This document shows, piece by piece, positions 8,790 to 62,272 of a stretch of DNA of 64,000 bases. The notes under the pieces are model-generated. The model was given only the letters and a program-made list of their open reading frames with translations. It did not search any database and had not been told where the DNA came from. A program made the translations under genes and the position numbers. Every line of letters starts with the position of its first letter. Position 1 is the first letter of the stretch. Origin of the DNA: Chiloscyllium plagiosum (lineage: Eukaryota); the NCBI RefSeq assembly GCF_004010195.1, contig NC_057753.1, forward strand, positions 6,841,960-6,905,959, written 5' to 3'.

Positions 8790-10222
8790 TATTCGGCCTC
8801 AAGCTCAGTGACCAGTGGTGTTCTGCAGGGTTCTGTTCTGGGATGAGGAAGTGTAAGGGTGGATTAGTAAGTTTGCCAATGACGCGAAGGCTAGTGAAGG
8901 TGTGGTTCGTGTCGAGACTGTTGTATGTTGCAATGGGACATTGACAGGATGCAGAGCTGGGCTGAGAAATGCCAGATGGAGTTCAAAGTGTGAAGTCATT
9001 TGCGTTGGAAGGTTGAATTTGAATGAGAATTACAGGGGTAAGGGCAGGATTCTTGGCAGTGTAGAGGAGCAGAGCGATCTTGGGGTCCATGTCCATAGAT
9101 CCCTCAAAGTTGCCACCCTACTTGCTCGGGTTGCTAAGAAGGTGTATGGTGTGTTGGCTTTCATTAGCAGGGGGATTGACTTTAAGAACCACAAGGTTAT
9201 GCTGCAGCTCTGTAAAGCCCTGTTTAGACAACACTTAGAATATAGTGTTCAGTTCTGATCGCCTCATTATAGGAAAGATGTGGAACCTTTAGAGAGGGTG
9301 CAGAGGAGATTTACCAGGTTGCTGCCTCAACTGGAGGGCATGCCTTATGAAACAAAGGTTGAGGGAGCGAAGAAGGATGAGAGGTGACTTGATAGAGGTA
9401 TGTATAAGATTATGAGAGGCATAGATAGTGTGGATAGCCACAGACTTTTTCTTCTGGTGGAAGTGGCTATCAAGAGGGGCTACAATCTTTAGGTGTAGGG
9501 GAGCTGTCTGAGGTAGGTTTTGGGAGAAAGTGAGGACTGTAGATACTGGAGATCGAAGTAGAGAGCGTGGTGCTGGAAAAGCACAGTAGGTCAGGCAGCA
9601 TCAGAGGAGCAGGAGAATCGATATTTTCGGCATAAGCCCTTCATCGCCTCTACACCCAGCTCCATCCCAGGTCCTAGCTCCCAGCCTGCCATGTCTTCAC
9701 TATTCCTCCAGACTTCACTGAAGATGAACGTTTAGTCCTCAGCAAAGACCTCCCCTTCATCCCTCTACGTTCCCGGATTAATGAGTTCGACATGAATTGC
9801 AACCTTCGCCTGCCTTCGCCTCTGAGCCCACTTTATAAATCAAGACTCCTGTCCACCAACGAGGACCCCTTCTTTTGCCTCCGACACCACCCCATCCACC
9901 TGGACACCTCGTACTGGCCTGTTACCCACCCTCAATTAATTCCTGATGAAGGGCCTATGCCCAAAATGCCGTTTCTCCTCCTTCTCGAATGCTGCCTGAC
10001 CTGAGGTAGGTTCTTCACACAGAGGGTGGTGGGTGTGTGGAATGCACTGCCAGCTGTGGTGGTAGAGTTTGATACATTATGGACATTTAAGAGACTCTTG
10101 GATAGACACCTGGATTATAGTAAAACGAAGGGCATGTCTGTCATTTTGATCTTAGAATGGGATAAAAGGTTGGCACAACATCGAGAGCCAAAGTGCCTGT
10201 ACTGTGCAGTAATGTTCTATGT
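8790..10222 (+). mobile_element. CR1 LINE 3' part, interrupted by a PLE at 9520-10000
   Basis: RT C-terminus (DLGVHVHRSLKVA, LEYSVQF); gttctatgtt tail. Confidence 0.9.
9520..10000. mobile_element. PLE derivative: inverted terminal repeats around an N-terminal ORF relic
   Basis: TSD CTGAGGTAGGTT at 9508-9519 and 10001-10012; hammerhead-like ctgatgaagggcctatgccc near 9943. Confidence 0.75.
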
Positions 10223-10639
10223 TAAGTCAGAGTTATAGATCCCTCTATCCCAAACCACCCCGTTACATAAATGCTTCTTCTTCAGACTTCACGTCAGCTC
10301 TGATGAAGTGTTACCTGGACTCTGAACGTGAGGTTGCTTTCTTTCCATGGTTGCTGCCTGACCTGCTGTGATCTCCAGCTCTTTTTTTTGTTGGAGGACT
10401 GGGCTGGAGCGCTTAGTCCTCCAATCAATGGCAGTGAGTGGGGCGGGGCTGGAGGACCAAGTGGGAGGCTCGTCGAATCAGTTCTTCAAAGTCCTGAGTG
10501 TGCCTATTTCAGCAGTGAGTTCCAGATGCTCGCCGCCCTCTCAAATTTAGTCTTAACCTTCTGGTCCTTACCTTAAAATTATGACCCCACAGTTACTGGT
10601 GCATCAGGGGAAACTTGCTCCCTATCCCCCCAACTGTAT

Positions 10640-11030
10640 AGAATCCCCACAATGTGGGAGAAAGGTAATTCAGCCCATCAAATCCAAACTGGCTCCCCAG
10701 AAGTGAGTGCGAACTACTGAGCATGTATTTCCAATAGCTATATACAGCTCAGTCAGGTCCACCCTCGGCCTTCTCTGCTCTACGGAAAACGACCCAGCCT
10801 GTCCAGTCACTCTTCAAAGCTGAATTAGTTCAGCCCCGGCAACATCCTAGTGAATCTGTTCATTACCCTCTCCACTGCAGTCATAGCCTTCCAAACGTGC
10901 AGTAACCAGACCTGCACACCGTACCCCGACTGTGTCGGAACTAACCTGAAATATGGGGCCATTGTAAACTCCTCATAGCCTCTTGTATGCCGTCCCTTGA
11001 GTAATGAAGTCAAGTATGGCAAATGCCTTA
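10640..11030 (-). mobile_element. Old CR1 3' fragment
   Basis: Minus-strand peptide ERVMNRFTRMLPGL. Confidence 0.7.
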
Positions 11031-11039
11031 AAATAAAGC

Positions 11040-11183
11040 AAAGAAATATGGATGCCAGAAATCTGAAATTGATGGAGAAACTCAACAAGGCAGAGAACTC
11101 CGAGATCACGTTTCCAGCCCAGTTCTGAGTAAGAGTTACTGGAGTCGAAACGTTAACTTTGATTTTCTTTACAGATGCTGACA
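11040..11183. mobile_element. Short fold-back PLE terminus with a decayed hammerhead motif (11122-11157)
   Basis: gtt-ctgagta-a-gagtt-actg-gagtc-gaaacgtt-aac. Confidence 0.6.
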
Positions 11184-11184
11184 A

Positions 11185-12865
11185 ACATAGAACACCAAAA
11201 AGTACAGCACAGAACAGGCCCTTAGGTCCACGATGTTGTGCCGAGATTTAATCCTAATGGAAAATATAGTAACTTAACCTACACACCCCTCAACTCACTG
11301 CTATCCATGTGCATGTCCAGTAGTCGCTTAAATGTCCCCAATGACTCTGCTTCCACCATTCCATGCATTCACAGCTCTCTGCGTAAAGAACCTACCTCTG
11401 ATGTCTCCTTTATACCTTCCTCCTAATATCTTCAAACTGTGACTCTCATACCAGTCAATCCTGCCCTGGGAAAAAGTCTCTGCCTATTGACTCTATCTAT
11501 TCCTCTCGTTATTTTATACACCTCGATCAGGTCTCCTCGCTTCCTCCTTCTCTCCAGCGAGAAAAGTCAGAGCTTATTCAACCTTTCTTCATAAGGCAAG
11601 CCCTCCAGTCCAGGCAGCATCCTGGCAAACCTTCTTTGTACCCTCTCCAAAGCCTCCACATCTTTCCTATAGTAGGGCGACCAGAACTGGACACAATATT
11701 CCAAGTGTGGTCTCACCAGGGACTTGTAGAGCTGAGCAAAACCTCGCGGCTCTTAAACTCGATCCCCCTGTTAATGAAAGCCAAAACACCATATGCTCTC
11801 TTAACAACCCTATCCACTTGGGTGGCAATTTGAGGGATCTATGTACTTGCACACCCAGATCCCTCTGTCCCTCCATACTGTCAAGAATCCTGTCTTTAAT
11901 CCTATATTCAACATTCGAGTTTCCCCTTCCAAAATGCATTTATCCAGATGAACTCCATCTGCCATTTCTCAGCCCAGCTCTGCATCCTGTCTATGTCACG
12001 CTGCAGCCTGCAGTAGTCCTCTATACTATTGACGACACCTCCAACCTTTGTGACATCTGCAAATTTACTAACCCACCCCTCAACCTCCTCATCCGAGTCA
12101 TTTATAAAACCTACAAAGAGCAGAGGCCCAAGAACAGAGCCCTGCGGGACCCCACTCAACACTGACTTCCGGGCAGAATACTTTCCATCTACAACCATTC
12201 TCTGCCTTCTGTCAGCCGGCCAATTCTGAATCCAGATAGCCAAATCTCCCTGTATCCCATTCTTCCTGACTTTATGAATGAGCCTACCTTGGGGAACCCG
12301 ATCAAATGCACTGCTGAAGTCCAGATACACCACATCCACTGCTCAACCGTTGTCGACTTGTCTTGACACAATAAGATTTGTGAGGCATGACCTGCCCTTC
12401 ACAAAGCCATGCTGACTGCCTTTAATCACACTATCCTTTGCCAAATAGTCATAAATCCTATCCATCAGGATTCTTTTCACAACTTTGCTGACCACAGACA
12501 TAAGACTGATTGGTCTGTAATTGCTAGGGATTTCCCTATTACCCTTCTTGAAAAGAGGAACAACATTCGCCTCCTTCCAATCCTCCGATACCACTCCCTT
12601 GGAGAGTGAGGAGGCAAATATCCTCACCAGTGGCTTAGCAACCTCCTTTCTTGCTTTCCAGAGCAGCCCAGGATAAATCTGGTCTGGCCCTGGGGACTTG
12701 TCAATCTTAATGTTTTCCAAAATTTCTAGCACGTCGTCTTCATTCGTCTTGATCTGGTCATGACTGTATCCCAGCTCCTCTAAATTTTCATTTACAACAA
12801 GTTCCCTTTCCTTGATGAAACCGAAGCAAAAAACTCATTTAGGGCTTCCCCTATCTCCTCAGAAA
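11185..12865 (-). mobile_element. CR1 LINE (RT to 3' tail)
   Basis: KSPGPDQIYP, YLDFSSAFDRVP, GVPQGSVLGP and KFADVTKV on the minus strand. Confidence 0.92.
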
Positions 12866-14556: not shown

Positions 14557-15417
14557 GGTGAACTCGTCCATACTGCCCAGATATTCTAAGCTAATCTAGT
14601 CCCATTTGCCAGTATTTGGCCCATATCCCTCTAAACCCTTCCTATTCATATACCCATCCAGATGCCTTTCAAATGCTGTAATTGTACCAGCCTCCACCAC
14701 TTCCTCTGGCAGTTCGTTACATACATGTACCACCCTCTGTGTGGAAAAAGTTGCCTGTTCGGTCCCTTTTATATCTTTCCCCTCTCACCTAAACCTGTGC
14801 CCTCTAGTTCTGGACTTAACCCACCCCAGAGAAAATACCTTGTCTATTTTCCGTATCCTTGCCACTCATGATTTTATAAACCGCTATAAGGTCACCCCTC
14901 AGCTTCCAATGCTCCAGGGAAAACAGCCCCAGCCTGTCAGCTTTCCGTGTAACTCAAATTCTTAAAACCTGGCAGCATCTTTGTAAATGTTTTCTGAACC
15001 CTTTCAAGTTTCACAACATCCTTCCAATAGGAAAGAGACCAGAATTGCACACAATATTCCAAAAGTGGCCTAACCAATGTCCTGTAGAGCTGCAACATGA
15101 CCTCCTGTACTCAGTACTCTGACCAATAAAGGAAAGCATACCTTCACTCTCCTATCTACCTGCGACTCTACTTTCAAGGGACTATGAACCTACACTCCAC
15201 GGTCTGTTTGTTCAGCAACACTCTGAAGATCCTGCCATTAAATGTGTAAGACCTGCTCTGATTTGCTTTTCCAAAATGCAGCACCTCCCCTTTATCATCT
15301 GCCACCCCTCAGCCCATTGGCCCATCTGATCAAGATCGCGTTGTAATCTGAAGTAACCTCCTTCGCTGTCCACTATACCTCCAATTTTTCGTGTCATCTG
15401 CAAACTTACTAACTATA

Positions 15418-20358: not shown

Positions 20359-20369
20359 GAGATACCCCA

Positions 20370-25800: not shown

Positions 25801-26768
25801 TATAGAAACCGTCAGTTTCTGTCCAGTAAGTACTGCGAGTGCCCTGAACGTTTCTGTACTGTCTGATCAATATTTCACCTGGGTCTGGGTCTTTTAGCGA
25901 TGATTTGAATTTGATTTCCTCCAGTTACTGAGTCACTGACTGTTGAAGACATTCCATTTCACAGAACCTTCTCGTTGGAAACTCGAATTACATCAGGGAA
26001 AGAGGCACGATCTGGCTGTTAGTTACAACATAAACCTGAACCACAGTGAGAGGCGAATAGAATAGATTCTCATGTGTCATGCTTATAATTGTGAAACATG
26101 AGAAATAACAGCAGGCAGAGGAATTCAGGATTATTGAGAAAATGACTGAAGTGAAAAGGAAGTATTTCACCATGGTTGTGAGCAGTGTTGTCCAGACTCT
26201 GACACTTAGCAATGGAGTGGTTTGAAGCAGCTAGCAGATAGGAGTTTGTAGTGAGGCCAATGTCTTCTGTCTTGCCAATATTTAAATTTCTGCTCGCCCA
26301 GTTGAGATATCAGACGTGTCAGGAATGTGTGTGATTGGGAGGTGACATTGTTGATATCAACCTCCGAGTCCGGTCTTTCTGGGTGGTAGAAGTTGTTCGG
26401 TTCTGTCAAAGTTCTGATCAATGTCCCTGTCCGTCTCCTCCTGCAGAGACGAAACGCTAGTGTTGGCCCGGACTGAGTGGCAGATTCCCATCACTGAAGG
26501 ACAGCAGTCAACTAAATGGGTTTTTGTTACAATCCAGTAGGTTACACGGTCAATTTTTCCCAGTGTCAGCCCCACACATTACCAGATTCATTCAGCTCCA
26601 TTTCAGAATTGTTAATCGTGTTTTTTTTTGATGTGGGTTTTCTCTCACCCCTTTTCTCTTTCATAGATCAAGTCACAGGAAGCTGGAAGGTTTGCATCCA
26701 GTAACATTGCAACAGGATTGACAGAGTCATCCGTTTTATCTTAACCTGAACATCGACGGAGTTTGAAC

Positions 26769-28130
26769 ATGGAAGAGAAGAACACCAGTCCCAGTGCGGA
26801 GGGATCACGGGAAGGTGGGGATGGTGGAAAGGAATTGAGTCCCATGTCTGAGCTGGAATCTCATCAACACAGTCACACAGGGAAGAAGCCATTCATCTGC
26901 TCCCAGTGTGGGAAGGAATTCACTGAATTATCCAACCTCCTCAGCCACCAGCACGTCCACACTGGAGAGAAACCATTCAAATGTCCAGACTGTGGGAAGT
27001 GCTACAAATGTTCCAAGGACTTGGTGTCTCACCAACGTGTTCACACTGTAGAGAGACCGTTCAAGTGCTCTCACTGCGGAACTGGGTTCAGGTTGCCATC
27101 GCAACTGACTGTACACCAGCGGATTCACACCGGGGAGAGGCCGTTCATCTGCTCTGAGTGTGGGAAAGGATTCACTCGGTCGTCTGACCTGCTCAAACAC
27201 CAGCGGGGTCACACTGAGGAGAGACCGTTCCGGTGCTCCCACTGTGGGACTGGTTTCAAGCAATCGTACGATCTCACCGTGCACCAACGAATTCACACTG
27301 GGGAGAGGCCGTACTCCTGCTCCGAGTGCGGGAAGGACTTCACTCGTTTGTCCAATCTGCTCAGTCACCAACAAGTTCACACCGATGAGAAACCTTTTAA
27401 GTGTCCAGAGTGTGGGAAGGGCTATAAAAATTCATGGAAACTGAAGTCCCATCAACGTGTTCACTCTGACGAGAGACCGTTTCGATGCTCTGACTGTGGG
27501 ATGATGTTCAAGCGATCATTTCAACTCACTGTTCACCAGCGCATTCACACCGGTGATGGGTTATTCACCTGCTCCAAGTGTGGGAAGGGATTCACTCAGT
27601 TATCCAATCTCCAGTCACATCAGCTAGTTCATACCGATGAGAGGCCTTTTCAGTGCACGGACTGTGGAAAGAGTTTTAAAAGTTCTGCAGGACTGATCCG
27701 TCATCAACGTATTCACTCTGATGAGAAACCGTTCATGTGTTCTCAGTGCGGAGCGAGGTTCACACAGTCATATACTCTCACTGTGCACCAGCGAGTTCAC
27801 ACTGGGGAGAGGCCATTCACCTGCTCCGAGTGTGGGAAAGGATTCCGTCGAGCATCCAACCTACTGGAACATCAGCGGGTTCACGCCACGGAGAGACCTT
27901 TTAAATGTTCAGCCTGTGAGAAGAGCTTCAAATGTGCCCGGGACCTTATGTCCCATCAGTGTGCACCCGCTGAAGCGACACCCTTCAGATGCTCTCATTG
28001 CGCGCCTGAGTTGGAGCAGTCATCCCAGTTCTCTGTAGATCAGCGACTCCACACTGAGCAACAACTGTTTATCTGCTCCGAGTGTGGGAGGAGTTTCACT
28101 CCATCATCCAAATTGCTGACACACGAGTGA
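26769..28130 (+). CDS. Tandem C2H2 zinc-finger protein, 453 aa: 12 canonical and 3 degenerate fingers, no effector domain visible
   Basis: Uninterrupted ORF with TGE(K/R)P linkers; ATG at 26769 in an aacATGg context; polypyrimidine tract and AG acceptor at 26665-26666; AATAAA at 28510-28515. Confidence 0.9.
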
Positions 28131-29019: not shown

Positions 29020-29575
29020 CATAGAATCGCTACAGTGTGGAAACGGGCCCTTCGACCCAACAAGGTCCACATCGACCCTCCAAACAGTAACCCACCCGGA
29101 CCCAAACAGTAACCCACCCGGACCCAATCCGCCCACTCTATATTTACCCCTGACTAATGCACCTAACCTACACATCCCTGAACACTATGGGGCTATTTAG
29201 TACAGTCAATTCACCTCACCTGCGCATCTTTGGACTCTGGGAGGAAACCGGAGCACCTGGAGGAAACCCACGCAGACACAGGGAGAATGTACAAACTCCA
29301 CCCGGGTTCCTGCTGCTGTAATAAAAGCAAATTACTACGGATGCTGGAATCTGAAACCAAAAGAGAAAATGCTGGAAAATCTCAGCAGGGCTGGCAGCAT
29401 CTGTAAGGAGAGAAAAGGGCTGATGTTTCGAGTCGAACTGACCCTTTGTCAAAGCTTTGACAAAGGGTCAGTTAGACTCGCAAAGTCAGCTCTTTTCCCT
29501 CCTTACAGATGCTGCCAGACCTGCTGAGATTTTCCACCACCTGCTGCTGTAAGCAGTGCGAACCACTGAGCCACC
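29020..29575 (-). mobile_element. HE1-type SINE split by a palindromic PLE insertion
   Basis: SINE tail and core at 29020-29310; head resumes at 29553 (gcagtgcgaaccactgagccacc). Confidence 0.85.
29322..29539. mobile_element. Fold-back PLE-terminus element with variant hammerhead cores
   Basis: TSD CCTGCTGCTGTAA at 29309-29321 and 29540-29552; palindrome centred on AAGCTT at 29452-29457. Confidence 0.85.
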
Positions 29576-29919: not shown

Positions 29920-31785
29920 CCTGAGAAACTTGGGCCCAACATGGGATGTGGGAGGCAGGGAGACAGGAATCCACCATAACCATTCCCCTCAAACAAGTAC
30001 ACCATTTTAGATACTGTTGTTGGTGGTGGTGGGGGCGGGGGGTTCACAATGACCATTCAGGGAAAATAGCAGTAGCCAGTTCAGTGGCCGTACGACTGGC
30101 TCTAGGACACTTTGGGAAAGGGAAAAAGTAAACATGACTTTCGTGATAGGAGACTCAATAGTTGGGGAGGCGGGGGGAGATAGACTGGAGATTCTTTGCT
30201 CACAAATGGGAATCAGGATGGTGTGTTGCCTCCCAGGTGCCAGGGCAACTGCAGACTGTACTCAAGAGGGAGGGTGAGCAGACAGAAGTCATTGTGCATG
30301 TTGGCACAAGTGGCATAGGTAGAAATAGGGATGCGGTCCTGATGACTGATTATAGAGAGATAGGAATAAAGTTTAAAAACCAGGACCTCAACAGTGGTAA
30401 GCTCCAGGATATGGCAGATGAATGCGTGGAGAAAGAATTGGTGCAGGGGCCAAGAATTCAGATTTTGAGATCATTGGGATCTTTTCTCGGGCAGAGGTGA
30501 CCTGTTCAAGAGGGACGGTTTGCACCTGAACTGGAGGGGGACCAATACCTCGGTGACCAAGTTTGTTAGTGCTACAAGGGAGGGTTTATACTAGATTGCC
30601 AGGTGGGAACCTCAACAGCGGGGAGGCAAGTACAAGGCTGATGCAGTGGAGAAGATGCAGTAATCAGAAATAGTAAAGTGAGGAGGCAGGTCAGGCTGGA
30701 ATATGACAAGGAGTAAGAAATGCCTGTTGGATTAAATTGCATCTGTTTCAATGCTAGATGGCTGACCGGTAAGGGAAGCACAGCAGGTGAGGCAGCATCT
30801 GAGGGGCAGGAGAATTGACATTTCGGGCATAAGCCTTTCATCAGGACTTATGCCCGAAATATTTTTTTCTTCTTTTCTTTTCCAGCACCACACTTTCGAC
30901 TGATCTGCAGTCCTCACTTTCTCCTGGCTGACAGGTAAGGCCGATGAACTCGGCATGGATAGGTATGTGGGACTGGGATATTATAGCCATTACAGAAACA
31001 TGGCTAAGGGAGGGATAGGACTAGCAGCTTCAGGTGCCAGGGTACAAGTACTTTAGGCAGGACAAAAGTGGTGGAAAGAGGGGAGGGGTGGTTACATTTT
31101 TGATTAAGACGAGTATCACAGCAGTAATCAGAATTAAATAAAGAAGAAACATCCAGTGAGACTTCGTGGGTGGAGCTAAGAAATAAGGGTATGATGATAT
31201 TATTGGGGTTGTACTATCGGCCCCCAAATAGTCAACGGGAATTAGAGGAACAAATATTCGGGAGTTTGGGAGACTTGCAGGAGCAGTAGGGTTGTCACTG
31301 TAGTGGATTTTAATTCTTCTAACATAGAGTGGGACAGCCAGAGTGTTAAAGGCTTAGATGGGGTAGAATTGTTAAATACATACAGGAGAGTTTCCCCAAT
31401 CAGGATTTGGAGGGTCCTACTCGGGAAGGGACAAAACTCGACCTACTTTTGGGAAATAGGGAGGACAGATGACGGAGGTGACAGTGGGGAGCACTTTGGG
31501 ATTGAAGTAGTTTGTTTGCAGATAAAGGGACCTCCGGCAAGTGGGGGAGGCTTTTAAAAGTGAGATAGTGAGAGCTCAAGGTCTATGTGTCCCTGTGAGC
31601 GTGATTGACAAGGTTGGCAGGAATAGGGAACAGTAGATGACAAGAGATATTGAGGCTTTGACCAGAAAAAAGGAGGAATGCCATAGATACAGGCAGCTGG
31701 GATCTAGGGAATCCCTAGAGGTGTATAGGGACACAGTAGTGTACTGAAGAAGGAATTCGGGCATGCAAAGAGGGGGTCATGAGAT
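29920..31785 (+). mobile_element. CR1 5' part: ORF1 SGNH-esterase-like relic and APE relic
   Basis: VIGDSIV, VIVHVGT, DGLHLNW; then CFNAR...IIAITETWL and GLYYRPPNS. Confidence 0.85.
30775..30924. mobile_element. Fold-back PLE-terminus element inserted in CR1
   Basis: TSD TGGCTGAC(C/A)GGTAAGG at 30759-30774 and 30925-30940. Confidence 0.8.
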
Positions 31786-32668: not shown

Positions 32669-32754
32669 GAAAAGGTCGACCCTGACCCTCAAATAAACCT
32701 GTTGGACTGTAACCTGGTGTTGTGTCATTTTTAACTTTGTCCACCCCAGGCAAC

Positions 32755-36029: not shown

Positions 36030-36480
36030 CTGAAGATCACAATGGATCAAACAGCATCCATGGAGAGAGAGAGAGAGAGAGAGAGAAAGTAAGCTAACGT
36101 TTCAAATCTTGTAGACGCGATTCCTGGAAGAGCATTAGGAGAAAGTGAGGACTGCAGATGTTGAAGATGAGAGTCAAAAAGTGTGGTGCTGGAAAAGCAC
36201 AGTAACCTTCGAGCTTATGCTCGAAACTTCGACTTTCCTGCTCCTCGGATGTTGCCTGACCTGTGGTGCTTTTCCAGCACCACAGTTTTTTGACTCCTGG
36301 AAGTGCACAGCAAGCCAGGCAGCATCAGGGGATGGAAAACCCAACGTTTCACCTTTCTTGAGGAGGGGTTATACCCAAAACATTGACTTCTCCAAATCCT
36401 GATGCTGCCTTGCGTACTGTGTTTTTTCCAGCCTCCTGTTGGTCTACTTTGTATTCCAGCATCTGAAGGTTTTTAGTCTC
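36030..36480. mobile_element. Nested fold-back PLE termini; inner element 36135-36294
   Basis: TSD TCCTGGAAG(A/T)GCA at 36122-36134 and 36295-36307. Confidence 0.75.
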
Positions 36481-38228: not shown

Positions 38229-38450
38229 AGGTAAAAACAAGGACTGCAGATGCTGGAAACCAGACTCTAGATAATAGTGGTGCTGGAAAAGCACAGAAGG
38301 TCAGGCAGCATCCGAGGAGCAGGAAAATCGACGTTTCGGGCAAAAGCACTTCCTAGTCCTGATGAAGGGCTTTTGCCCGAATCGTTGATTTTCCTGCTCG
38401 GATGCTGCCTGACATGCTGTGCTTTTCCAGCACCACTCTAATCTAGAGAC
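38229..38450. mobile_element. Fold-back PLE-terminus element
   Basis: Perfect TSD TGAGAATTTCAGCA at 38215-38228 and 38451-38464; hammerhead-like motif at 38357-38388. Confidence 0.88.
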
Positions 38451-40889: not shown

Positions 40890-41265
40890 GAAGTCCTTGT
40901 ATTTGGTGTCCCTCAAGGATCTATCCTTGGTCCCTCCTGTTTCTCATCTACATACTTCCAGATGGTGGTGAGGTAGAGCTGGGCATTGTCAGTGAACATG
41001 TGAAAATTAACATCGTCCTAAAGCACCGTGTTAGTTTTCACATGTTCACTGACATTGCCCAGCTCTACCTCACCACCATCCCTCTCCATTGCTCCACTGT
41101 TACTCAATTGCTAAACTGCTTCCAGTACTCAATGAGTAGAAATATTCTCCAAGGAAACACTGGGATGGTTAATCCCATTGCCTTCTCTTACTGTTACAAA
41201 TTACTTTCCCTTACTACCAAGTCTATTCCTCTGGCTGGGAACTGTCTGAGGCTGATCTATAATCC
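40890..41265 (+). mobile_element. L2-like RT relic
   Basis: GVPQGSILGP and FHMFTDIAQLYL. Confidence 0.65.
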
Positions 41266-43800: not shown

Positions 43801-45729
43801 CAGTACTGTGGTGTACTCAGAGCACGTGGACTGCAGCAATTCAAGAAAGTTGTTCACCACCACTTTGTCCGAGTCAGATAAACATGGAGAATAAGTACTG
43901 GCCTGGGCAGCCATCAACACACCCCGTTCATAACCTAAAATTATGGTGGGTTTCTGTTTTGTGGAGAGCTAGCAGAAGCTCAGATAATTGTCCTTGCAGC
44001 TTAGAAGGTTAAGCAATGATTTATTCGAGTTGTATATTTGTTCCCAGGATATTTAATTTGTAGAGACAGAATGAAAATATTAACGTTGTTACAATGTTTG
44101 ATAACCACAGAATATAAGTTTCAGATATTTAGCAAATAATGCCGGGTGAATTCAGCATGTTCTGAGGATCTGGAACAGTCTGAACTGGATGGAGATTCAG
44201 CAGTTATTCTCGAAAGAGATTTGGAATTTAACTTTTAAATGAAAGATTAAGAGGGCTGTGGGCAAATGGCAGGGAAATTGGGACAGATTTGGAGGATTTC
44301 TAGGGTTAGATTAAAGCCTTTGACAAGGTTCTGCATGGTTGTCTAATTAGTAAAGTTACATCATAGGGAGAGCTTGCCAATTGGGTACAACATTGGCTTT
44401 AAGGTAGGAGACAGACGGTGATGGTGGAGGGTTGTTTTTCACAGTGGAGGCCTGTGATCAGTAGTGTTCCACAGAGTTTGGTATGAGGTCCATTTGTGTT
44501 TCTTTTATATGAATGATTTGGATGAAGATATAGAGAGTATGGTAAGTACATTTGTAGATAATAATTAAATTAAATAGTGAATAGGTTGCTGTAGCAACCC
44601 ATGGCTAAGTTGACAAAATGGCCGCTCGGGCTTTTTTAAACTAACACAAAATGGCCGAAAGGGTTTGACAGTTACAGACACCAGATGTTCACAGCTCAAC
44701 TTGTAGTCTTCATATGAGATTGTCTGGGTAAAATGAAATTCTCCGTCAGAAGAGACGTTAAGGAAGTTAATCAAGTTTCTGTGAATGGGCAGTTTTAAAC
44801 ATCCAGGCATTCTAATAAGGGGCATTTTGCAAGGCCTAATTTAGCCAAGTTCCAAGTTTGTTATTTAGTAAAATGTAGAAGGAAAAGCCTGATCGTACAG
44901 TATTCTGAAATGTTTAAGTAATTGTCAAATTAGAAATGCAAATCACAAATTAGAGTGAAAAAGTTAGTTACAAACTTGAGCAAATGTTTATAAGCAGTAA
45001 AGAGGCCCAATGCATTTTGAGGGAAGATAAAGTAATAATTAGTGTAAACACGACCTTCAAAAAACCATTGACATAGAAGAAAGGTTGTAAATAGAGAGGT
45101 CATGACTGGGAAGGTAAACAACTGAAACTTAAGTGCAGATATAGATAATTTGGACAAATTCCTACATCCAAAGATCAAGGAAAGATTGATAAAGTCAGAT
45201 TACAAAATTTAGAGTGACAATGTGATTTTTTTGTGAAATTTAAAGTTTTGTTTACTGGCTTGGTAAAATTGTAAAGTGGTTGAATTTCACTCTCATCAGA
45301 TGCTTTTACAAAGAAAAGATCATTTGCAATGTGAAATGTTTACAGTGGAAACAGTAAAGATTTGTTTAAAAATGAAATTTGAGATTAAAATCCGCTTACA
45401 GCACGTAGATGGCAGTGGTCGTAAACTGCAATTGCATGTCAGAGAGACTGTTGTTTGATGTCTCAAACAAGTGAAAGAGGGTTGCTCTCAATTTGCCATC
45501 TGTGTCAATTTAACTTTATATTAGAGTTGATTTTAAAGGCTTTATAACAATTGTTACAGATTAATATCCTTCCTAATCTGCTATACTATTAATAAAGTTA
45601 GTACAGAATGTGTAAGATTTCTTAGTGAAAAGCAAGTATTTGGGTTATTGGTATATAATGTGGTGCAGCTGGTAAGTCTCTGGGAAGAAATAAAACTGTC
45701 AGAAGCATTGTAAGATCCCAAAGATAGAT

Positions 45730-45962
45730 GAGCTGAAAATGTGTTGCTGGAAAAGCGCAGCAGGTCAGGCAGCATCCAGGGAACAGGAGAATCGACGTTT
45801 CGGGCATAAGCCCTTCTTCAGGAAGCCCTTCCTCATTCCTGAAGAAGGGCTTATGCCCGAAACGTCGATTCTCCTGTTCCCTGGATGCTGCCTGACCTGC
45901 TGCGCTTTTCCAGCAACACATTTTCAGCTCTGATCTCCAGCATCTGCAGACCTCACTTTCTC
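45730..45962. mobile_element. Young fold-back PLE-terminus element with perfect 95-bp inverted arms
   Basis: Arms 45730-45824 and 45836-45930; TSD CCCAAAGATAGATGA at 45717-45731 and 45963-45977. Confidence 0.92.
45835..45870 (+). ncRNA. Minimal type-I hammerhead ribozyme motif (mirror copy on the minus strand at ~45790-45825)
   Basis: CUGAAGA-A-GGGC-UUAU-GCCC-GAAAC-GUC; predicted cut after 45866. Confidence 0.75.
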
Positions 45963-46553
45963 CCCAAAGATAGATGATGAAGACATCTGATAAACATCAT
46001 GAGATTATGGGAGGACCTAGGGCAGTCCGTCGAGTTGCCATCATTGATCATGGATTGTATGTACAGCTTAGGGGAATGTGGCTAACAATGACATCAATGT
46101 TGCATGTCATTATTATAACGAAGGGTATAAAAATATATTTCACTGGGGAGCTCAGTGGCTTTCCGATCTGAGCTGTGATTAAGAGGGCAATTAAGCCCCA
46201 TGTGAAAGGCAGATTTGGGGTGTCTCTGGCTTCTCCCACAAATGTGGCAATAGAACTCTAAATAAAGGCCACTTTGGCGAAGAAACGCAGAACTTAAGAC
46301 TCGTCTTTGGTAGGCAAATCAAAGGTAAATCTAAGATTACAAAGAGGTATTGGTCAACGAGGTGAGGAGTGGGAGAGGGTTTAATTTTGTTAAGTGTGAG
46401 TTAAGGATATAAAGATAGAACATACAAATTATTAGTAGGGCCTGGATAGTGTTGTATAATAGAGAGACCTAGGGGTTCAGGTACATAATTCTTTGTAGTT
46501 TGTATCACAGCTGGTTAAGAAGGGGTTTAGTATGCTTGCCTTCATTGTTCAGT

Positions 46554-46783
46554 GTTGAAACTTTATTGCTGGAACAGCACAGCAGGTCAGGCAGCATCCA
46601 GGGAACAGGAGATTCGACGTTTCGGGCACAGGCCCTTCTTCAGGAAGCCCTTCCTCATTCCTGAAGAAGGGCTTATGCCCGAAACGTCGAATCTCCTGTT
46701 CCCTGGATGCTGCCTGACCTGCTGTGCTGTTCCAGCAATAAAGTTTCAACTTTGATCTCCAGCATCTGCAGACCTCACTTTCT
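46554..46783. mobile_element. Young fold-back PLE-terminus element with 93-bp arms
   Basis: Arms 46554-46646 and 46658-46750; TSD CCTTCATTGTTCAGT at 46539-46553 and 46784-46798. Confidence 0.92.
46657..46692 (+). ncRNA. Minimal type-I hammerhead ribozyme motif
   Basis: AUUC-CUGAAGA-A-GGGCUUAUGCCC-GAAAC-GUC-GAAU; 4-bp helix I. Confidence 0.8.
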
Positions 46784-48229
46784 CCTTCATTGTTCAGTCC
46801 CTTGAGTACAAGAGTTGGGAAGTCCTGTTGCGGTTGCAGAGGACATTGCTGAGGCTTCTTCTGGAGTACTGTGTGCAGTTCCAGTCTCCTGTTGAAGAAA
46901 TGATATTGTTCAACTGGAGAGGGTTGAGAAAAGATTTTGCGGCATGTTGCCTGGAGTAGACTGAAAAGGCTGGATTTTTTTTTTCCACTGGAGCGTAGGA
47001 GGTTGAGGGGTGACCAAATTGATGTTTATAAAATGAGGGGAATAGATTAAGTGAGTAACAAAAGTCTTTTCCCTTGGGTGGGTGACTTCAAAACTAGGGA
47101 AGCACATTTTTAAGGCGAGAGGAAATATTTTAAAAAGGAAAGGAAGGGTATTTTTTTTTAAACAAGGTGATTCATGTGTGAAATGTGAGGGAGAAGTGGA
47201 TGTATGCCCGGTCGTAATGTTTATAAAAGACATGTTGATAAATTTACACCAATGGGAAAGTTTTGGAGCTGTATGGGCCAAAAGCAGGCAGATGGGACCA
47301 GTTTAGTTTGGGAACATGGTCGGCGTGGGCTGGTTGGACCGAAGGGTCTGTTTCATGCTGTATGACTGTGAGAGAGTACAGCTGCAATGGGCTGAATGGA
47401 CCTCAACCCCAGTGCTCTGTGATACTGTTCCATTCACTGTGAATGGTGAAGCTCATCCCAGGGCAGGGAGAGAGAGGATCCCATCACTTACCTCACAATG
47501 GGGCCCAGCTGATTGACAGGTGTATGCATGCACAGGTTTCCTAATGCAAGGGGAGTGCTGCTGGGGTTTGAGGATTCGAATGCAGCCAATTTAAACCAAG
47601 GTAAATGATTGTCATTTCGAGGTTTCTGCTTTGGACTGACAGTACATTTTCGTGAACTTCTTTTGCAGGATATTAATTGAGAATAATTTGCACTCCAGGA
47701 TCTCAAAACACGTTCTGACAGAGTCAGCAGAGCCATCAGGACCTGAATATTATTGGCGTTTACTGTGGAAGGAAAAAGGTTTGTCTATGGGAAAAATATT
47801 TCCAAAATGGTTGTAATTCAAAACACAGCAAGTTGTTCAGGCTCCTGTGTCTGGGCCCTGCAGCTGAGGAAGGAGATATTGCCTTGACGGGGGCCGGGGC
47901 ACAGATTTATACAGGTAACACCTCATCTCTTGGGACAAACTGTTATATTTACTCCCAGTCTCACACTTCACGATTAGAGCCTATAAGTTTCTCATTGTCT
48001 AAAGAGCTGCAAATTCCCATTTTTAAATTTGTTATGAATTTGCAATCCAGCACCCCTTCTGCTGGGATGTTCCAGATCCCGACAACTCTCTGTTGATCCA
48101 GAAACTGCAGAATTCTGTGTGAAGTCTGGAGGGTTATTAAGGGTTATATTGAGAAATGGGAGACTCTTCCCCGAGCTCCCATGGAGCTTCACTGCACGAG
48201 TCAGAGTGGTCCCTGTGAGTGCTGCTTCG

Positions 48230-50904: not shown

Positions 50905-51815
<911 letters not shown>

Positions 51816-53309: not shown

Positions 53310-53441
53310 TCTGGGTCTTGAAGAAGGGTTACACCCGAAACATTGACTTCTCCACTTGCTGATGCTGTCAGGTTTGCTGTGTTCTTCCAGCCTCTTGCCT
53401 GTCTACTTTCGATTCCAGCATCTGCAGTTTTTCTGTCTCTA
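53310..53441 (+). mobile_element. PLE terminus with decayed hammerhead motif
   Basis: ttgaaga-a-gggt-tac-accc-gaaacatt. Confidence 0.7.
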
Positions 53442-54469: not shown

Positions 54470-55600
54470 TCAATGGCACCTTGATCAGATGTGCCAATGG
54501 GCTAAGGAATGGTTGATGGAGTTTAGATTGGATAGATTTGAGCTATTACATTTTGCTAAGGCAAACCAGGTAGGAATTATACAGTCAATGGGAAGGCCAT
54601 GGGCAGTGTTGCTGAATAAAGAGACCGAGGGCAGCAGCTGCGTATTTCATTGTAAGTAGATTTGCAGGTAGACAGGGTAGTGAAGAAGGCGTTTGGCACA
54701 CTTGCCTTCATTTGTCAGTGCACTGAGTATAGCAGTTGGGGTGTTTTGTCGCAGCTCTAATAGACATTGGTCAGGCCTGTTTTAGAATACTGCTTTAAAT
54801 TCTGGTCTCCTTGCTATGGAAAAGATGTTGTTAAACATGTGAGGGTGCAAAAATAATTCACAAGGGTGTTGACAGGATTGGAGTGTTTGAGATATTGGAA
54901 GAGGCTTGGGCAATTTTTTCTCTGGAATGTCGGAGGCTGCTTTATAGAGGTTTATATGATCATGAGGGCAATTGATAGGGTGAATAGCCAAGGTCTTTTT
55001 TATGGGGTAGGACTCCAAAACGAGTGGGTATAGGTTTGATGCCATTCCTGAAGAAGGGCTTATGCCCGAAATGTCGATTCTCCTGTTCCTTGGATGCTGC
55101 CTGACCTGCTGCGCTTTTCCAGCAACACATTTTCAGATCTGATCTCCAGCATCTGCAGTCCTCAGTTTCTCCTTGAAGATTTTAACCTACTGCGACTCCT
55201 CTTGCAAGGATGCCTTCCTTGAAGAAGCTGTCTTCCTCCCTCTCCTGAAGAAGGGCTTATGCCCGAAACGTCGATCCTCCTGTTCCTTGGATGCTGCCTT
55301 ACCTGCTGCACTTTTCCAGCAACACATTTTCAGCAGAGGTTTAATGTGACAAGGGTAAGATTTGAAAGATTTGACCTCGGGCAACTTTTTCATGCAGAAG
55401 GTGGAACCAGATGCCAGAGGAGTTGGTGGAAGTGGATACAATTACAACATTTAAAAGGCATCTGGCTGGGTAGATGAATAGGAAAGTTTTAGAGGGATAT
55501 GTGCGAAATGCTGGCAATTCGGACTAGATTAGTTTAGGATATCTGTTGGCACAGAAAAGTTGGACTGAGAATCTGTTTCCATGCTGTATAACTCTTACTA
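54470..55600 (+). mobile_element. CR1 3' fragment interrupted by a tandem PLE terminus
   Basis: RT C-terminus and 3' UTR. Confidence 0.8.
55042..55336 (+). mobile_element. Direct-tandem PLE termini with two hammerhead motifs 197 nt apart
   Basis: CTGAAGA at 55048 and 55245; TSD AGGTTT(G/A)ATG at 55032-55041 and 55337-55346. Confidence 0.85.
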
Positions 55601-56346
55601 TCTCTGTAAATTCCCCGGTCCCTGCAACAGTACCTAGCTCTGTAATTTTCTCCAGCCTGTAACCTGTTCCAGCCCCAGCATAACTTGCTTTCTATGTAAT
55701 CTAGTCCAGAGTCACAGTCCTCCCTATCAGTGTAACCTCATCCAGCTTCACAACCCTCCCCTACCTCTCTGATCCCCCACAGCCTCACAATTCTCCCTAT
55801 CTCTAATAACACCTCCCCCCCCCTCCAAACCTACAGTTTCACAACCTTCCCTATCTCTCTAATTTCCTCAACCTCAGAGCCCTGGTTATTTGTGTAACAA
55901 CTGTCCAATTGCAGAATCATCTCTGATGTTAGATAATGTGTTGTAATTTTTTGAAGTGCGAGCTAGTTGGGATGCCTTGTTTCTTGTGACCAGTTGGGGA
56001 GACCTGCTGCTTCCGATATGATGTCTCTCTTTGAGATGTATGGAGCCGAAATCTGGTCTCACGCTGACACTGACATGCCACATTACACATTACTGTGAGA
56101 AACAGAACATTGTCCTGTTCTGGCAAAGAACATGTACAGGGCACACTCAACTGATGGGAACTGGGGAGGCAGTTCAAGAACTTGGACAGTGTACTGGGAG
56201 ACAGCATGTTGATACTGTCTGGTGTTAGTGAGCTGTGGGATGGGTATTGACCAGTACCAAATCCCTCCACCCTCCCCCATCCTCACTCGTGCTCTTACTC
56301 TGCTGCACACCAGCTGGTGGAGATAGGTGACAAGTTTGTAAGTTGT

Positions 56347-56815
56347 CGTGGTTGTGTTCGCCGAGCTGGGAATTTGTGTTGCAGACGTTTCGTCCCCTGA
56401 CTTGGATCTCAGCAATTGATGGTGGTCAAATGTAGGTCAGCAATATGGAAACTGTCAGAAATCAAGGAGCACTGGGTTCCGGTTGTCAGTTCCAGCTGTC
56501 CGCTGCAGTGGCCGGTATGTTGGGTCCAGGTCGATGTGCTTATTGATTGAATCTGTGGATGAGCACTATCAATAAGCACATCGACCTGGACCCAATATAC
56601 TGGCCACTGCAGCGGACAGCTGGAACTGACAACCGGAAGCGGCAGATACAAATCACTATAAATGCTGGAGGAAACATCACAGAAGCGCTTCACATGAGGC
56701 TCCCAAGCACTGAGGATGTCACCTAGACAGGGGACGAAACGTCTGCAACACAAATTCTCAGCTCGGCGAACAGAACCACAACAACGAGCACCTGAGCTAA
56801 AATCTTCTCCCAAAC
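56347..56815. mobile_element. Fold-back PLE of a different family carrying the ORF C-terminus
   Basis: TSD TTTGTAAGTTGT at 56335-56346 and 56816-56827; reading frame INKHIDLDPIY...STEDVT* on the + strand. Confidence 0.85.
56707..56746 (+). ncRNA. Minimal type-I hammerhead ribozyme motif
   Basis: GCA-CUGAGGA-U-GUCACCU-AGAC-AGGGGAC-GAAAC-GUC-UGC. Confidence 0.8.
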
Positions 56816-56925
56816 TTTGTAAGTTGTATTATCCTGTTTAAGACATCTCCTGCACAGACATGGTCATGACCTTCATGGGTCCAGTTCAGAGCTATACTTG
56901 AAGTTCCTCAGAAGCAGTTTCTCTC

Positions 56926-58745: not shown

Positions 58746-58754
58746 TTCCAACAT

Positions 58755-59145
58755 TTCTGACGGACCAGCGCTAGGACCCGGTAGGCACAGAAGCCTGGAA
58801 GCGCCGCCCATAAGTGCGTCACAAAGCGGACCATGCATGTGCCGTACTCCCGAGGGAGCCAAGATGGCGGAGGCTAACCAGGATCTGATCCCAGCTAAAA
58901 TCCCAGAACAATATACATGCGGGATTTGCAGGTTGTGAATCGAAGTTTGAGGTACAGTATTTAGTAAGCGTTTGCGAACACTCCGGCATTGCCTCCGCCG
59001 TCCCGCAGACCCTCCCCCGCGCCTGGAGATGTGATGAAAAAAACCCTCTATGAACATTGGTATTAATGTAACTGCGCATGCCCAATACTCTAGCGGAGGG
59101 GAAACTGCACATGCGCACCTTTCATCACCGCGGCGCATGGTGGGT
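58755..59145 (+). promoter_or_regulatory. CpG-island promoter and probable first exon
   Basis: YY1 motif AAGATGGCGG at 58861-58870, possible donor GAG|GTACAG at ~58952, NRF1-like motifs near 59073 and 59106. Confidence 0.65.
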
Positions 59146-59269
59146 AAAGGCATTGTCATTTGCCTGTCCTCGGATGCTGCCTGAATTGCTGTGCTCTTCC
59201 AGCACCACTGATCTAGAATCTGGTTTCCAGCATCTGCAGTCATTGTTTTTACCACCTTTATGACATTGA

Positions 59270-59620
59270 AGGAGCCAGAGTTGGACTGAGGTGCACAAAG
59301 TTAAAAATCACACAACACCCAGGTTACAGTCCAACAGGTTTATTTGGAAGCATTAGCTTTCGGAGCGCTGCTCCGTCAGCAGGTGGTTGTGGAAAATACG
59401 AGAGTAGGACAGAGAATTTATCGCGAACGTTTACAGTGTGATGCAACTGAAATTATATATTGGTCTTTTTCAACATATAATTTCCATTGCATCACACTGT
59501 AAACTTCTGCTATAAATTCTGTGTCCTCCGATCTTAACCTCCGCAACCACCTGATGAAGGAGCAGCGCTCCGAACCTGTTGGACTGTAACCTGGTGTTGT
59601 GTGATTTTTAACTTTGTACC
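59270..59620. mobile_element. Fold-back copy of the PLE terminus of the 59760-62270 family
   Basis: ~165-bp imperfect arms around ~59465; ctgatga-a-ggagc-agc-gctcc-gaa at 59551. Confidence 0.8.
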
Positions 59621-59759
59621 CCTCTGGGTCACTCACCATCCTGCTCTGGAACGGTATCAGCTCTCCTTCATTTTCCCCGGGTCGGAATCCTGGCATTCCC
59701 TCCCTCATGTCGGTGTGGGTGCACTGCAGCGGTTCAAAATGCAGCTCACGGTTTTGTTT

Positions 59760-62272
59760 GGAGGAGCCGGTGTTGGACTGGGAAGTACAAAGATAAAGAT
59801 CACACAACACCAGGTTACAGTCCAACAGGTTTATTTGGAAGCACTAACATTCAGAGTGCTGCTCCTTTAGGTGGCTGTGGAGTACAGCCACAAGGCACAG
59901 AATTTACAGCAAAAGATTACAGTGTCATGCAACTGAAATGATGCATTGAAAGAAAACTTAGATTGCTGTTAAGTCTTTCATCTTTTAGAATGACCATGTT
60001 GTTTTCAGTTCTTTCATATATAAAACCCAGAACCTTCTTTGAAGTTGCATTCTCAAATGAACTTTAACAAAAGCTGCCATATCAGCCCAGATAATGCACT
60101 GAATGTGTGAGTCTGCCTGTACCTCAACGTTCAGATTGGTTCTAATCTAAAAAAGGGATTGACAGAATCTTACATGGATTTGTGCAGTTTTTGAGCAAGA
60201 TAAAATGTAATTCTGCAAGTACAAATTCACCCCACTAACCTATATGTTGTGTGTGGATGTGGATATGTGTGTGGGGGGGAGGGGGGAGGGGGGGGGAAAG
60301 GGTTATAAGGCTGTGAGAAGGTGCATGTGGGAGTGTATGTGTGAGCATATGAGAGAGAGCTTATGTATGAGAGAGGGTCTGTGTGCGTGTGTGCATCTGT
60401 AGGTGTGTGTGTGTAGGAGTGTCAATGTCTATGTGTGTATAGTGCAGTGGGGTCACCTATAGTGTGATATGGACTCAAGGTCCCGTTTGAGGCCATCCTC
60501 ATGGGTACCAAACTTGGCGATCAACTCTGCTTGGACACTTTGCACTGTTGCTCGTTCCGAAGTCCATCTTGTAGGATGGTCAACCGAAGGTCCGAGGCCG
60601 AATGTCTCAGACCGCTGAAGTATTCTCCGACTGCGAGGGAATACTCCTGTCTGTTGATTATTATGCAGTGTCCATTCATCCGTTACCGTAGCCTCTGCTC
60701 ATTCTCACCAATGTACCATGCCTCAGGGCACCATTGCCTGCAGCATATGAGATAGACAACGTTGGCCAAGTCACATGAGTACCTGGCAAGTACATGGTGG
60801 AAGGTGTCCCCACATGTAATGGTGGTATCTGTGTCAACACTCCGACACATCTTGCAGCGTCTACCAGAACAAGGTTGTATGGTGATTTCCTGAAAGCCGG
60901 AAAGTTTGCTGTGAACAATGATCTGTTTGACGTTTGGCGGTTGTTTAAAGTCAAGAAGCGGAGGCGTGGGGAAGGTCTTGGCAAGGTGCTCATCCTCATT
61001 GATAATGTGTTGCAGGCTGCAAAGAACATAGCGTAGTTTTTCGACTCTTGGGAAATACTGGACAACGAAGAGTACCCGGTCGTTTGCAGCTCCTGTCTGT
61101 CTCCTGAGGAGGTCGTTACGCTTTCTCACTGTGGCACATCGGAACTGGTGGTCGATGGGTTGAGCATCGTACCCCATTCTTATGAGGGCATCCTTGAGTA
61201 CCATCAGGTTCCTGTCAAGTTCCTCCTCATCTGAACAGATCCTATGTATGCGTAGTGCTTATCCGTAGGGAATGGCAGTTTTAATATGTTTAACGTGCAA
61301 GGTGGAAGAGTGTAGTATTGTGAGGTTATCTGTGGGTTTTCGGTAGAGTGAGGTGCTGAGGTCCCCATCCTTGATGGAGATGCATGTGTCCAAGAATGAT
61401 ACAGATACTAGAGAATAGTCCATGATGAGTTTGATGGTGAGAAACTCTGTGATATCACTGTGTAGTTGTTTCAGTGTCTCCTTGCCATGGGACCATAGGA
61501 AGAACATGTCATTGATATACCTGGTGTATAGTTTTGGTTGGAGGTCCTGCATATAGAATAAGTCTTGTTTGAACCTGTGCATGAAAATGATGGCATATTA
61601 GAGTGCAATTTTGTTTCCTCTGGCTGTTCATGCCACACTACAGGTGACCCAACTGCACTACATATGTGTGCACACACACTCCTACAGACCCATAAGCTCA
61701 CGCAGACCCTCTCTCATATACAAGCTCTCTCTCATACACTCACACACGCACCCTCTCACAGTCACTCATACCCCCCTGCATGCACACACCCACATGCACA
61801 CATATTTAAGTTTGTGAGGTGAACTTGTACTTGCAGAATTACATTTTTATTTTGCTCATAAACTGCATGAATCCATGTAAGATTCTGTCAATCCTTTTTT
61901 TTAAGATTAGAAACAGTCTGAACATTGGGGCACAGACAGCCTCACACAGGGCACCTCACACCTTTAATGCATTATCTGGCCAACATGACCCCTATTGTTA
62001 AAGTTCACTTCAGAAGGTAACTTTAAGAAAGTTCTGGGATTTAGATATTAAAAAAACTGAAACCAGCATGCCCATTCTGAAAGATGCAAGACTTACCAAA
62101 CAATTTAGGTCTTTTTCAATATATAATTGCAGTTATATCACACTGTAAACCTTTCCTATAAATTCTGTGTCCTACAACTTTATACTCCATAACCACCTGA
62201 TAAAGGAGCAGCACTCCGAAAGCTAGTGCTTCCAAATAAGCATTTTGGACTATAACCTGGTGTTGTGATTTT
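59760..62272 (-). mobile_element. Truncated Penelope-like retroelement: RT C-terminal half and GIY-YIG, between inverted pseudo-LTRs
   Basis: TRYINDMFFLW, FLDTCI, LYRKPTD, PCSGRRCKMC and NVVYLICC...WYIGE; 59760-60480 is mirrored at 61625-62272. Confidence 0.92.

Follow-up and report, generated by a model that had tools for sequence, protein, structure and literature searches.

Minimal hammerhead motifs of Penelope-like elements in a 64-kb window of the genome of the shark Chiloscyllium plagiosum

Hammerhead motifs in the window

We analyzed a 64-kb stretch of the Chiloscyllium plagiosum genome (assembly GCF_004010195.1, 3.56 Gb; contig NC_057753.1, positions 6,841,960 to 6,905,959), called the window below, for short repeated insertions that carry minimal type-I hammerhead ribozyme motifs. 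An earlier note on this DNA had taken these motifs for the hammerheads of Penelope-like elements (PLEs), an identification that our analysis supports. The window holds ~24 recognizable motifs, six complete and ~18 decayed, which are listed with the insertions that carry them in Table 1. We defined a complete motif by its core, a paired helix II, the GAAA box, a palindromic ACGU and H17.

The motifs fall into five families named for their helix II: A (GGGC/GCCC), B (GGGU/ACCC), C (GGAGC/GCUCC), D (GGGUC/GACYC), and E (GUCNCCU/AGGNGAC). All share a short architecture. There is no loop III, and helix III (positions 15.1–16.1) is a self-complementary tetramer, read with position 17 as ACGU-C in families A, B, D, and E and as AGCU-H in family C. 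An extra, unpaired nucleotide stands before helix II, between A9 and G10.1; it is U in family E and A in the other four families. The first helix II pair (G10.1–C11.1) is G–C in 35 of the 36 distinct rows of the pair-count alignment described below. The catalytic boxes CUGANGA...GAAA and a non-G H17 are present in the six complete window copies.

A script searched the window for motifs that combine the core with one extra nucleotide, at least 3 bp of helix II, the GAAA box, a self-complementary tetramer, and H17. It returned the six motifs marked complete in Table 1, together with near-complete ones at 55048 (+) and 35352-35379 (-). A stricter scan with a helix II of at least 4 bp, run on 234,000 bases (the window plus 170 kb of arbitrary genome pieces), gave 13 matches, five in the window and eight in the 170 kb, and none in each of 20 shuffles. 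The six complete window copies stem from four insertion events and represent a mild local excess over the genome density.

Model building had also been proposed in the earlier note, and we made a covariance model from intact copies of families A, B, D, and E. It finds 17 window sites at E ≤ 0.02, among them the following, which are not on the list of that note: 30811-30849 (-), 11120-11160 (+), 35370-35407 (+), and 38324-38358 (-). Outside the 17 sites lie six decayed family C motifs and the truncated family E arm at 56384-56403 (-). The model, built with family C left out, missed every family C copy, intact ones too; the pair counts given below therefore cover families A, B, D, and E. A MAFFT alignment of all five families was dropped because it placed family C one column off register.

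At the ten places that the earlier note had cited, the helix II pairings it described are all to be found. The CUGANGA core that it ascribed to them is exact at seven (45839, 46661, 55048, 55245, 38359, 59551, and 56710) and fails at 53318 (UUGAAGA), 62197 (CUGAUAA), and 29465 (UUGACAA). Four of the ten are full motifs (45839, 46661, 55245, and 56710); the rest are incomplete, and most of the cited copies are decayed. The copy at 38359, for example, reads GAAUCGUU, the one at 59551 has lost the stretch after GAA, and the one at 9940 is heavily worn. Six decayed window copies have ACAU or AUGU as helix III, owing to CpG decay of ACGU, and the 9938 copy has AUGC. By itself, then, the window is mostly a set of relics, and any argument from covariation needs the intact copies found elsewhere in the genome.

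Table 1. Hammerhead-bearing insertions and related copies in the window, in order of position
Feature	Position	Strand	Hammerhead motif or region	Target-site duplication	Remarks
A-type copy	9523-9645	-			
Family A stub, decayed	9938-10003	+			
Hammerhead-like copy of a further family, decayed	11120-11160	+			Helix I GUU/AAC
Family D inverted dimer	29370-29539		29416-29457 (-), 29452-29493 (+)		Both arms: core UUGACAA (U3-A8), helix II GGGUC/GACUC; minus arm helix III ACAU; plus arm GAAA box broken
Family A stub, decayed	30776-30849	-			AGGC/GCCC, AUGU; absent from the earlier note
Family C fragment	32690-32747	+			
Family C fragment	34212-34294	-			
Family C copy, decayed	34607-34774	-			
Family A inverted dimer	35290-35484		35352-35379 (-), complete but for ACAU; 35370-35407 (+), decayed		Arms turn round at the 5' edge of the hammerhead
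Family B-like copy, decayed	36353-36390	+			GGGU/ACCC, ACAU; weak model match, E = 0.09
Inverted dimer, CUGAUGA...UUUU subtype of family A	38240-38436		38354-38392 (+), GAAUCGUU; 38324-38358 (-), core lost		
Family A inverted dimer, head-to-head	45732-45963		45794-45821 (-) and 45839-45866 (+), both complete	14 bp, 45718-45731 and 45964-45977	Left arm without the final ~35-40 nt (tail) of the right arm
Family A inverted dimer	46554-46785		46616-46643 (-) and 46661-46688 (+), both complete	13 bp, 46541-46553 and 46786-46798	34-nt tail (46752-46785) confined to the right arm
Family B stub, decayed	53313-53427	+			Core UUGAAGA, helix II GGGU/ACCC, helix III ACAU
Solo family A stub, long-form 3' end	55043-55174	+	55048-55075		Helix III ACGU changed to AUGU
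Family A stub, short-form 3' end	55243-55334	+	55245-55272, complete		
Family E inverted dimer	56347-56819		56710-56743 (+), complete; 56384-56403 (-), remnant	8-12 bp, 56335-56346 and 56816-56827	Right arm with the last 52 codons of the PLE open reading frame (56568-56726); left arm shorter, final ~30 nt missing
Family C inverted dimer	59288-59613		59551 (plus arm)		Junction near 59462; plus arm deleted after GAA; minus arm decayed to CUGCUGAC
Family C copy, decayed	59785-59965	-			CUGA box lost
Family C copy	62100-62290	+	62197-62225, ~95 nt inside the element		Core decayed to CUGAUAA; helix III AGCU; H17 = A

Insertion anatomy

Three insertions in the window, two of family A and one of family E, are head-to-head inverted dimers bounded by target-site duplications, and in all three the left arm ends 30–40 nt before the end of the right arm. 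The architecture of PLE insertions is thus found here in each of its parts: a duplication, an inverted 5'-truncated partner, and a one-sided tail of 30–40 bp. The same pair of alternative 3' ends, short and long, recurs in family D loci fetched from elsewhere in the genome. We took a census of the 5' and 3' ends of the 53 A-type copies in the 234-kb sample, where the 3' ends are bimodal (query positions 76–95 and 123–125). Reads and contigs aligned to the solo copy at 55043-55174 likewise show thousands of loose ends at 55133/55138 and 55171-55173.

The 5' side is sharply bounded in many copies. The whole motif is kept by 38 of the 53 A-type copies, many A dimers have their turning point precisely at the hammerhead's 5' edge, and a few copies in the A-type sample reach 45 nt or more upstream of the motif. 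The great majority of copies are stubs of ~90–140 nt that have no coding part. Four A copies (L004:9036, L011:1218, L013:9704 on the minus strand, and L018:600) have at least 45 nt in common upstream of the hammerhead, and this stretch ends in sequence like the element's own 3' end, which may point to a source element that is longer or partly tandem.

RNA reads over the element come from run X19, a fragmented poly(A) single-cell library that is ill suited to questions of cleavage, of RNA ends, or of expression from the element's own promoter. Over 55020-55200 they show family A in both directions, one direction being commoner over the tail. Of the X19 reads on the family A element, 96% continue into unlike flanks; they therefore stem from many copies other than this one, which probably lie in host transcripts.

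Link to Penelope-like element proteins

Coding sequence ties family E to PLEs. On the same strand upstream of an E-type hammerhead, one frame (L003) has the DKG, LPKVHK, and RYVDN motifs of the PLE reverse transcriptase (RT), and another (L001), 350 nt upstream of an E hammerhead, has a GIY-YIG-type motif with paired cysteines. A shark protein of 463 aa (P0002), with a match to RVT_1, unites both regions: its residues 15–224 are 83% identical to the L003 frame and its residues 328–437 are 90% identical to the L001 frame. The GIY-YIG endonuclease of family E is a putative one, read from the motif and from relatives. An Atlas search returned a DUF8422 lead only. The PLE assignment of the A/B/D and C families would follow from insertion anatomy and the motif itself.

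In the family E dimer the open reading frame runs into the ribozyme (56568-56743): its end (...STEDVT*) extends over the core as well as helix II's 5' strand, and its stop codon TAG (56724-56726) sits in loop II of the hammerhead at 56710-56743. Two protein models from a related shark include stretches similar to the PLE endonuclease region, 87% identical in P0001 (MAP3K7 isoform X3) and 66% identical in P0005 (5'-nucleotidase domain-containing protein 1 isoform X3). Both probably contain an exonized or mis-annotated element. Among named proteins, the nearest are those of bamboo and epaulette sharks.

Genome-wide families, kinship, and covariation

We counted the families across the assembly by exact-pattern scans for complete motifs, with reversed patterns as controls. 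Intact copies number 88,354 for family A, 18,466 for family C, 4,851 for family E, 1,356 for family D, and 195 for family B, and the reversed patterns gave 0 for the five family scans. A CUGAAGA core with a loop of 3–4 nt, like that of the window copy at 53318, characterizes 128 of the 195 B copies. In the genome scan for motifs whose second helix II pair is other than G–C we found 9,613, family E included, as compared to 13 for the control. Besides E, this class holds an E-like family (GUUACC/GGUGAC or GGUAAC), which repairs the internal A·G mismatch of E, and an A-like family (GAGC/GCUC), in which pair 2 of helix II has switched from G–C to A–U. In total the genome has ~1.2 × 10^5 intact motifs, some 34 per Mb. 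In six family B loci (L021-L026) a 6-nt palindrome, GUCGAC, encloses the cut site and overlaps ACGU, and cofolding favors this palindrome as the dimer contact.

Tails compared with the hammerhead removed are colinear and similar between A and D (E = 1e-10), A and B (2e-7), and B and D (8e-6), whereas the C and E tails have no significant similarity to one another or to A, B, or D. By sequence, the five families are three lineages (A/B/D, C, and E). Since the homology among A, B, and D extends to single positions, the covariation argument is the stronger for this kinship.

For the pair counts we fitted 36 distinct rows to the structure of the covariance model. Paired cells make up 86.9% as compared to 74.7 ± 1.2 in shuffles, a level reached by 0 of 500, and a partner-sliding control brings pairing down to 13–44%. 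Both-sided changes occur in six of eight pairs. Helix I, which was absent from every search pattern, has the sets AUUC/GAAU, AGUC/GACU (the GGGU family, B), CAC/GUG, AGCU/AGCU, and GCA/UGC on intact genomic copies, its first pair varying between G–C, A–U, and U–A.

The genome counts, which do not depend on the fetching patterns, give the same picture for single pairs. At pair 4 of helix II there are 88,354 C–G, 1,720 U·G, 905 C·A, and 195 U–A. Independent decay would predict 17.6 of the U–A doubles, 11-fold fewer than observed, and the wobble single U·G is 1.9 times commoner than the mismatch single C·A. In the core, the family A context has 88,354 motifs with C3–G8 versus 21 with U3–A8, and the family D context has four with C3–G8 among 1,356 copies. 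The first 100 D copies listed comprise 94 with U3–A8, six with C3/A8, and none with G8. The family D master thus carries a U3–A8 core, UUGACAA, and is not a worn form of CUGANGA. Helix I, helix II, and the catalytic core all show genuine covariation.

Set against these results, the earlier note fares well on the fold and less well on ancestry. Helix I sets and pair counts support its claim of several families that keep the fold through compensatory changes; of the five helix I sets it named, AUUC/GAAU, CAC/GUG, GCA/UGC, and AGCU/AGCU are seen on intact genomic copies, and GUU/AAC fits a decayed copy, at 11120-11160. The AGCU helix III that it read at 62221 is present there and is the state of the whole of family C, and its expectation of a large and diverse genomic set of ribozymes is borne out by the genome total. 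It was mistaken in counting the 29465 family among the bearers of CUGANGA, given the U3–A8 covariation, and in calling five families unrelated, since GGGC, GGGU, and GGGUC have homologous tails and the lineages are three.

Interpretation and alternatives

We regard it as very likely that these copies are 3' modules of PLEs, in which the fold is selected in a few source elements while inserted copies decay neutrally. A module consists of a minimal type-I hammerhead followed by roughly 50–135 nt, depending on family and 3' form, and ends at one of two fixed points 30–40 nt apart. Most copies would be stubs, either severely 5'-truncated or non-autonomous, that arise when target-primed reverse transcription begins within the RNA. 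Priming may often occur at both ends of the cut DNA, in which case two cDNAs would meet head to head, giving inverted dimers with a target-site duplication and a tail on one arm. Selection would act on the fold only in a few transcribed source elements, so that sister families come to differ by compensatory changes in helices I and II and at C3–G8/U3–A8; after insertion, copies would decay neutrally, the CpG of helix III being lost first. The ribozyme would work where transcripts are paired or hold several copies, by way of a helix III (ACGU:ACGU or AGCU:AGCU) formed between molecules, probably with help from the element's protein, and would not be required for the insertion step itself. Judging from the sequences, the fold is probably selected in source elements for the processing of multi-copy transcripts as dimers, the inserted copies being inert.

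A number of results weigh against this account. The predicted cut site is the starting point of only one of the 53 A-type copies in the 234-kb sample, and the raw X19 reads, from a library ill suited to the question, show no pile-up of ends at the element. Copies with a mismatched helix II form inverted dimers that have the variant in both arms, and an imperfect ribozyme therefore does not block one round of transposition. Energy-based cofolding of two copies did not recover the ACGU:ACGU contact and preferred UCGA or GUCGAC palindromes. An Anolis PLE can insert in vitro without its hammerhead, and no RNA ends were detected at the cut site of that motif (PMC11167929). In our pair count, the B, D, and E loci had been fetched with patterns that already prescribed their helix II. 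Rfam gave no match on the window at the gathering threshold, and none of its 18 matches at E ≤ 10 is to a hammerhead family; the Rfam hammerhead models (types I, II, III, HH9, and HH10) miss these motifs because they demand a helix III hairpin. Pfam, applied to the frames upstream of E hammerheads, gave no GIY-YIG match and no RT match for L003, and the link to RT and GIY-YIG is seen for family E only. As regards function, the shark results agree with the Anolis work, in which the ribozyme is protein-assisted and dispensable for insertion.

Several of these points would suit a fold kept as a structural handle, for recognition or folding by the RT complex or as a marker of the template's 5' edge, with self-cleavage playing no role in the life cycle. 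Anolis hammerhead mutants leave insertion in vitro unchanged, and the protein-binding region adjoins the motif (PMC11167929). Here, the motif is kept whole in 38 of 53 copies, many inverted dimers reverse at its 5' edge, and one start in 53 is no surplus at the cut site; Naiad PLEs, moreover, thrive without hammerheads (Craig et al. 2021, PMC8557442). We nonetheless think a mere handle rather unlikely: the invariant positions coincide exactly with the catalytic ones, C3–G8 is swapped to U3–A8 as a unit between sister families, which is not expected of a protein handle, and the Anolis motif does cleave once protein is added, with rescue by C3G/G8C (PMC11167929). It is very improbable, in turn, that nothing has been selected in these elements and that the motif seems conserved merely because its copies are young and identical by descent. 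Copies within a family are indeed near-identical and uninformative, and inserted ones plainly decay, but homologous families co-change both sides of pairs in helix I, helix II, and the core, and both the 11-fold surplus of U–A doubles (195 versus 17.6) and the 1.9-fold preference for wobble over mismatch (1,720 versus 905) run counter to such a view.

Two other readings concern origin and mode of spread. That at least five unrelated PLE families independently keep, or have converged on, the same minimal fold, as the earlier note had it, draws on the C and E tails, which resemble neither each other nor A/B/D and leave at least three lineages that cannot be aligned outside the ribozyme. The colinear tail of A, B, and D (E = 1e-10 to 8e-6), with the same short and long ends, makes these three one lineage, and the motif is present in every PLE clade in print (PMC4209133), so that common descent is simpler than convergence; the reading is thus quite unlikely. 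We likewise put little faith in the short elements being animal retrozymes, that is, tandem non-autonomous hammerhead units that spread through circular RNAs. A 2026 preprint on vertebrate non-LTR (long terminal repeat) retrozymes derives them from the pLTRs of PLEs and reports them from the one cartilaginous fish that it covers (10.64898/2026.07.22.740005), and some A copies do have a stretch like their own 3' end upstream of the motif. Yet the window's 18 tandem arrays are all free of hammerhead units, copies in the window and the 234-kb sample are dispersed singles or inverted dimers with target-site duplications, and no circle-type joint was seen in the raw RNA reads.

A further reading of this genome we put forward tentatively, thinking it possible and rather less than probable. 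The ~10^5 copies, made from few masters, with sister families that have switched C3–G8 to U3–A8 and re-paired helices I and II and with wobble variants more frequent than mismatch ones, could serve as a natural deep-mutational scan. If the asymmetries survive controls for mutation context, the catalytic fold, and not just a protein handle, would be under selection in vivo in vertebrate PLEs, and would be so even though insertion in vitro can do without the ribozyme. The sharp 5' edge that many stubs and inverted dimers show at helix I would, in that case, suggest an undescribed role of the folded ribozyme in setting the template's 5' end.

Other features of the window

The window also contains a C2H2 zinc-finger cluster, with an intact 13-finger exon at 26745-28130 (+), a decayed finger array with stops at 51019-51560 (+), and single fingers near 4234 and 63927, toward both window ends. 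LINE-type fragments (endonuclease/RT, FADD box) lie at 1-3195 (+) and 12343-12834 (-), with KFADD motifs at 15407, 23940, and 25075, and are unrelated to the PLE stubs.

For annotation, the PLE modules account for a very common class of 90–140-nt repeats in the introns and intergenic DNA of this shark, and for inverted dimers there that form hairpins; such dimers give rise to spurious microRNA-like matches. The only Rfam matches over hammerhead sites in the window are sub-threshold ones to microRNA models that respond to long hairpins. We rejected the mir-680- and mir-3158-like matches as microRNAs, since what they mark is the inverted dimers. At 40960-41081 (-), the plant microRNA family MIR408 gives a sub-threshold match, with 45.5 bits against a gathering score of 64, on a long and nearly perfect hairpin that is probably one more inverted repeat and no microRNA.

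Comparison with known systems

The shark insertions behave like PLEs in general. Like the PLEs in Craig et al. 2021 (PMC8557442), they are 5'-truncated, have an inverted and 5'-truncated copy beside their 5' end, carry a one-ended tail of 30–40 bp, and show target-site duplications of variable length, and the RT DKG motif and the paired cysteines of the GIY-YIG region are common to both. Unlike the elements treated there, the shark copies are overwhelmingly ~90–140-nt non-coding stubs.

A closer parallel is the Poseidon PLE of Anolis carolinensis (PAc; Frangieh et al. 2024, PMC11167929), which was studied in vitro, whereas the shark elements are known from sequence alone. In both, the hammerhead stands ~50–100 nt, varying with the family, upstream of the 3' ends, these ends are two and lie 30–40 nt apart (tail), and the end region has an AC-rich stretch (...GAACAGAACCACAACAAC... 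in shark family E). The PAc tail was attributed to two sites inside the RNA at which reverse transcription starts, ~90 nt beyond the hammerhead's cleavage point, and the enzyme extends both DNA strands in vitro, which fits the inverted dimers of the shark (PMC11167929). The reading frames are placed differently, that of PAc beginning at stem II of the hammerhead and that of shark family E ending in loop II.

With vertebrate non-LTR retrozymes (Cervera and de la Peña 2020, PMC7229834; Li et al. 2026, 10.64898/2026.07.22.740005), the shark stubs share a non-autonomous nature, a hammerhead, and an origin at PLE termini. Retrozymes form tandem arrays with canonical type-I hammerheads and circular RNAs, while the shark stubs are dispersed, inverted, or solo and have the minimal form; the tandem succession of at least two consecutive hammerhead units that marks a retrozyme was found neither in the window nor in the 234-kb sample.

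The kind of element is already in print, and no new mechanism is revealed here. A full-text literature search found no paper on PLE hammerheads in sharks. Cervera and de la Peña (2014, PMC4209133) described minimal hammerhead ribozymes in the pseudo-LTRs (terminal repeats) of metazoan PLEs, and their account already has the extra nucleotide, G10.1–C11.1, the missing loop III, the palindromic positions 15.2–16.2, and the short helix I, as well as per-genome consensus families "full of covariations". There, too, most copies are single motifs of truncated PLEs, motif pairs occur on opposite strands 100–700 bp apart, and the U3–A8 core variant appears, in Cercyon elements of Schistosoma. The shark differs from those hosts in its ~1.2 × 10^5 intact motifs, as compared to ~4,000 in the coelacanth and ~9,000 in Xenopus (counted there with another descriptor), and in a family, E, whose motif overlaps the stop codon of the open reading frame. 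Our analysis thereby adds a cartilaginous fish, and by far the largest population whose count is known to us, to the known PLE hammerheads. It also places demonstrable sister families with U3–A8 and C3–G8 cores in one vertebrate genome, natural evidence that compensatory change between sister families of elements preserves the C3–G8 core pair and the two short helices.

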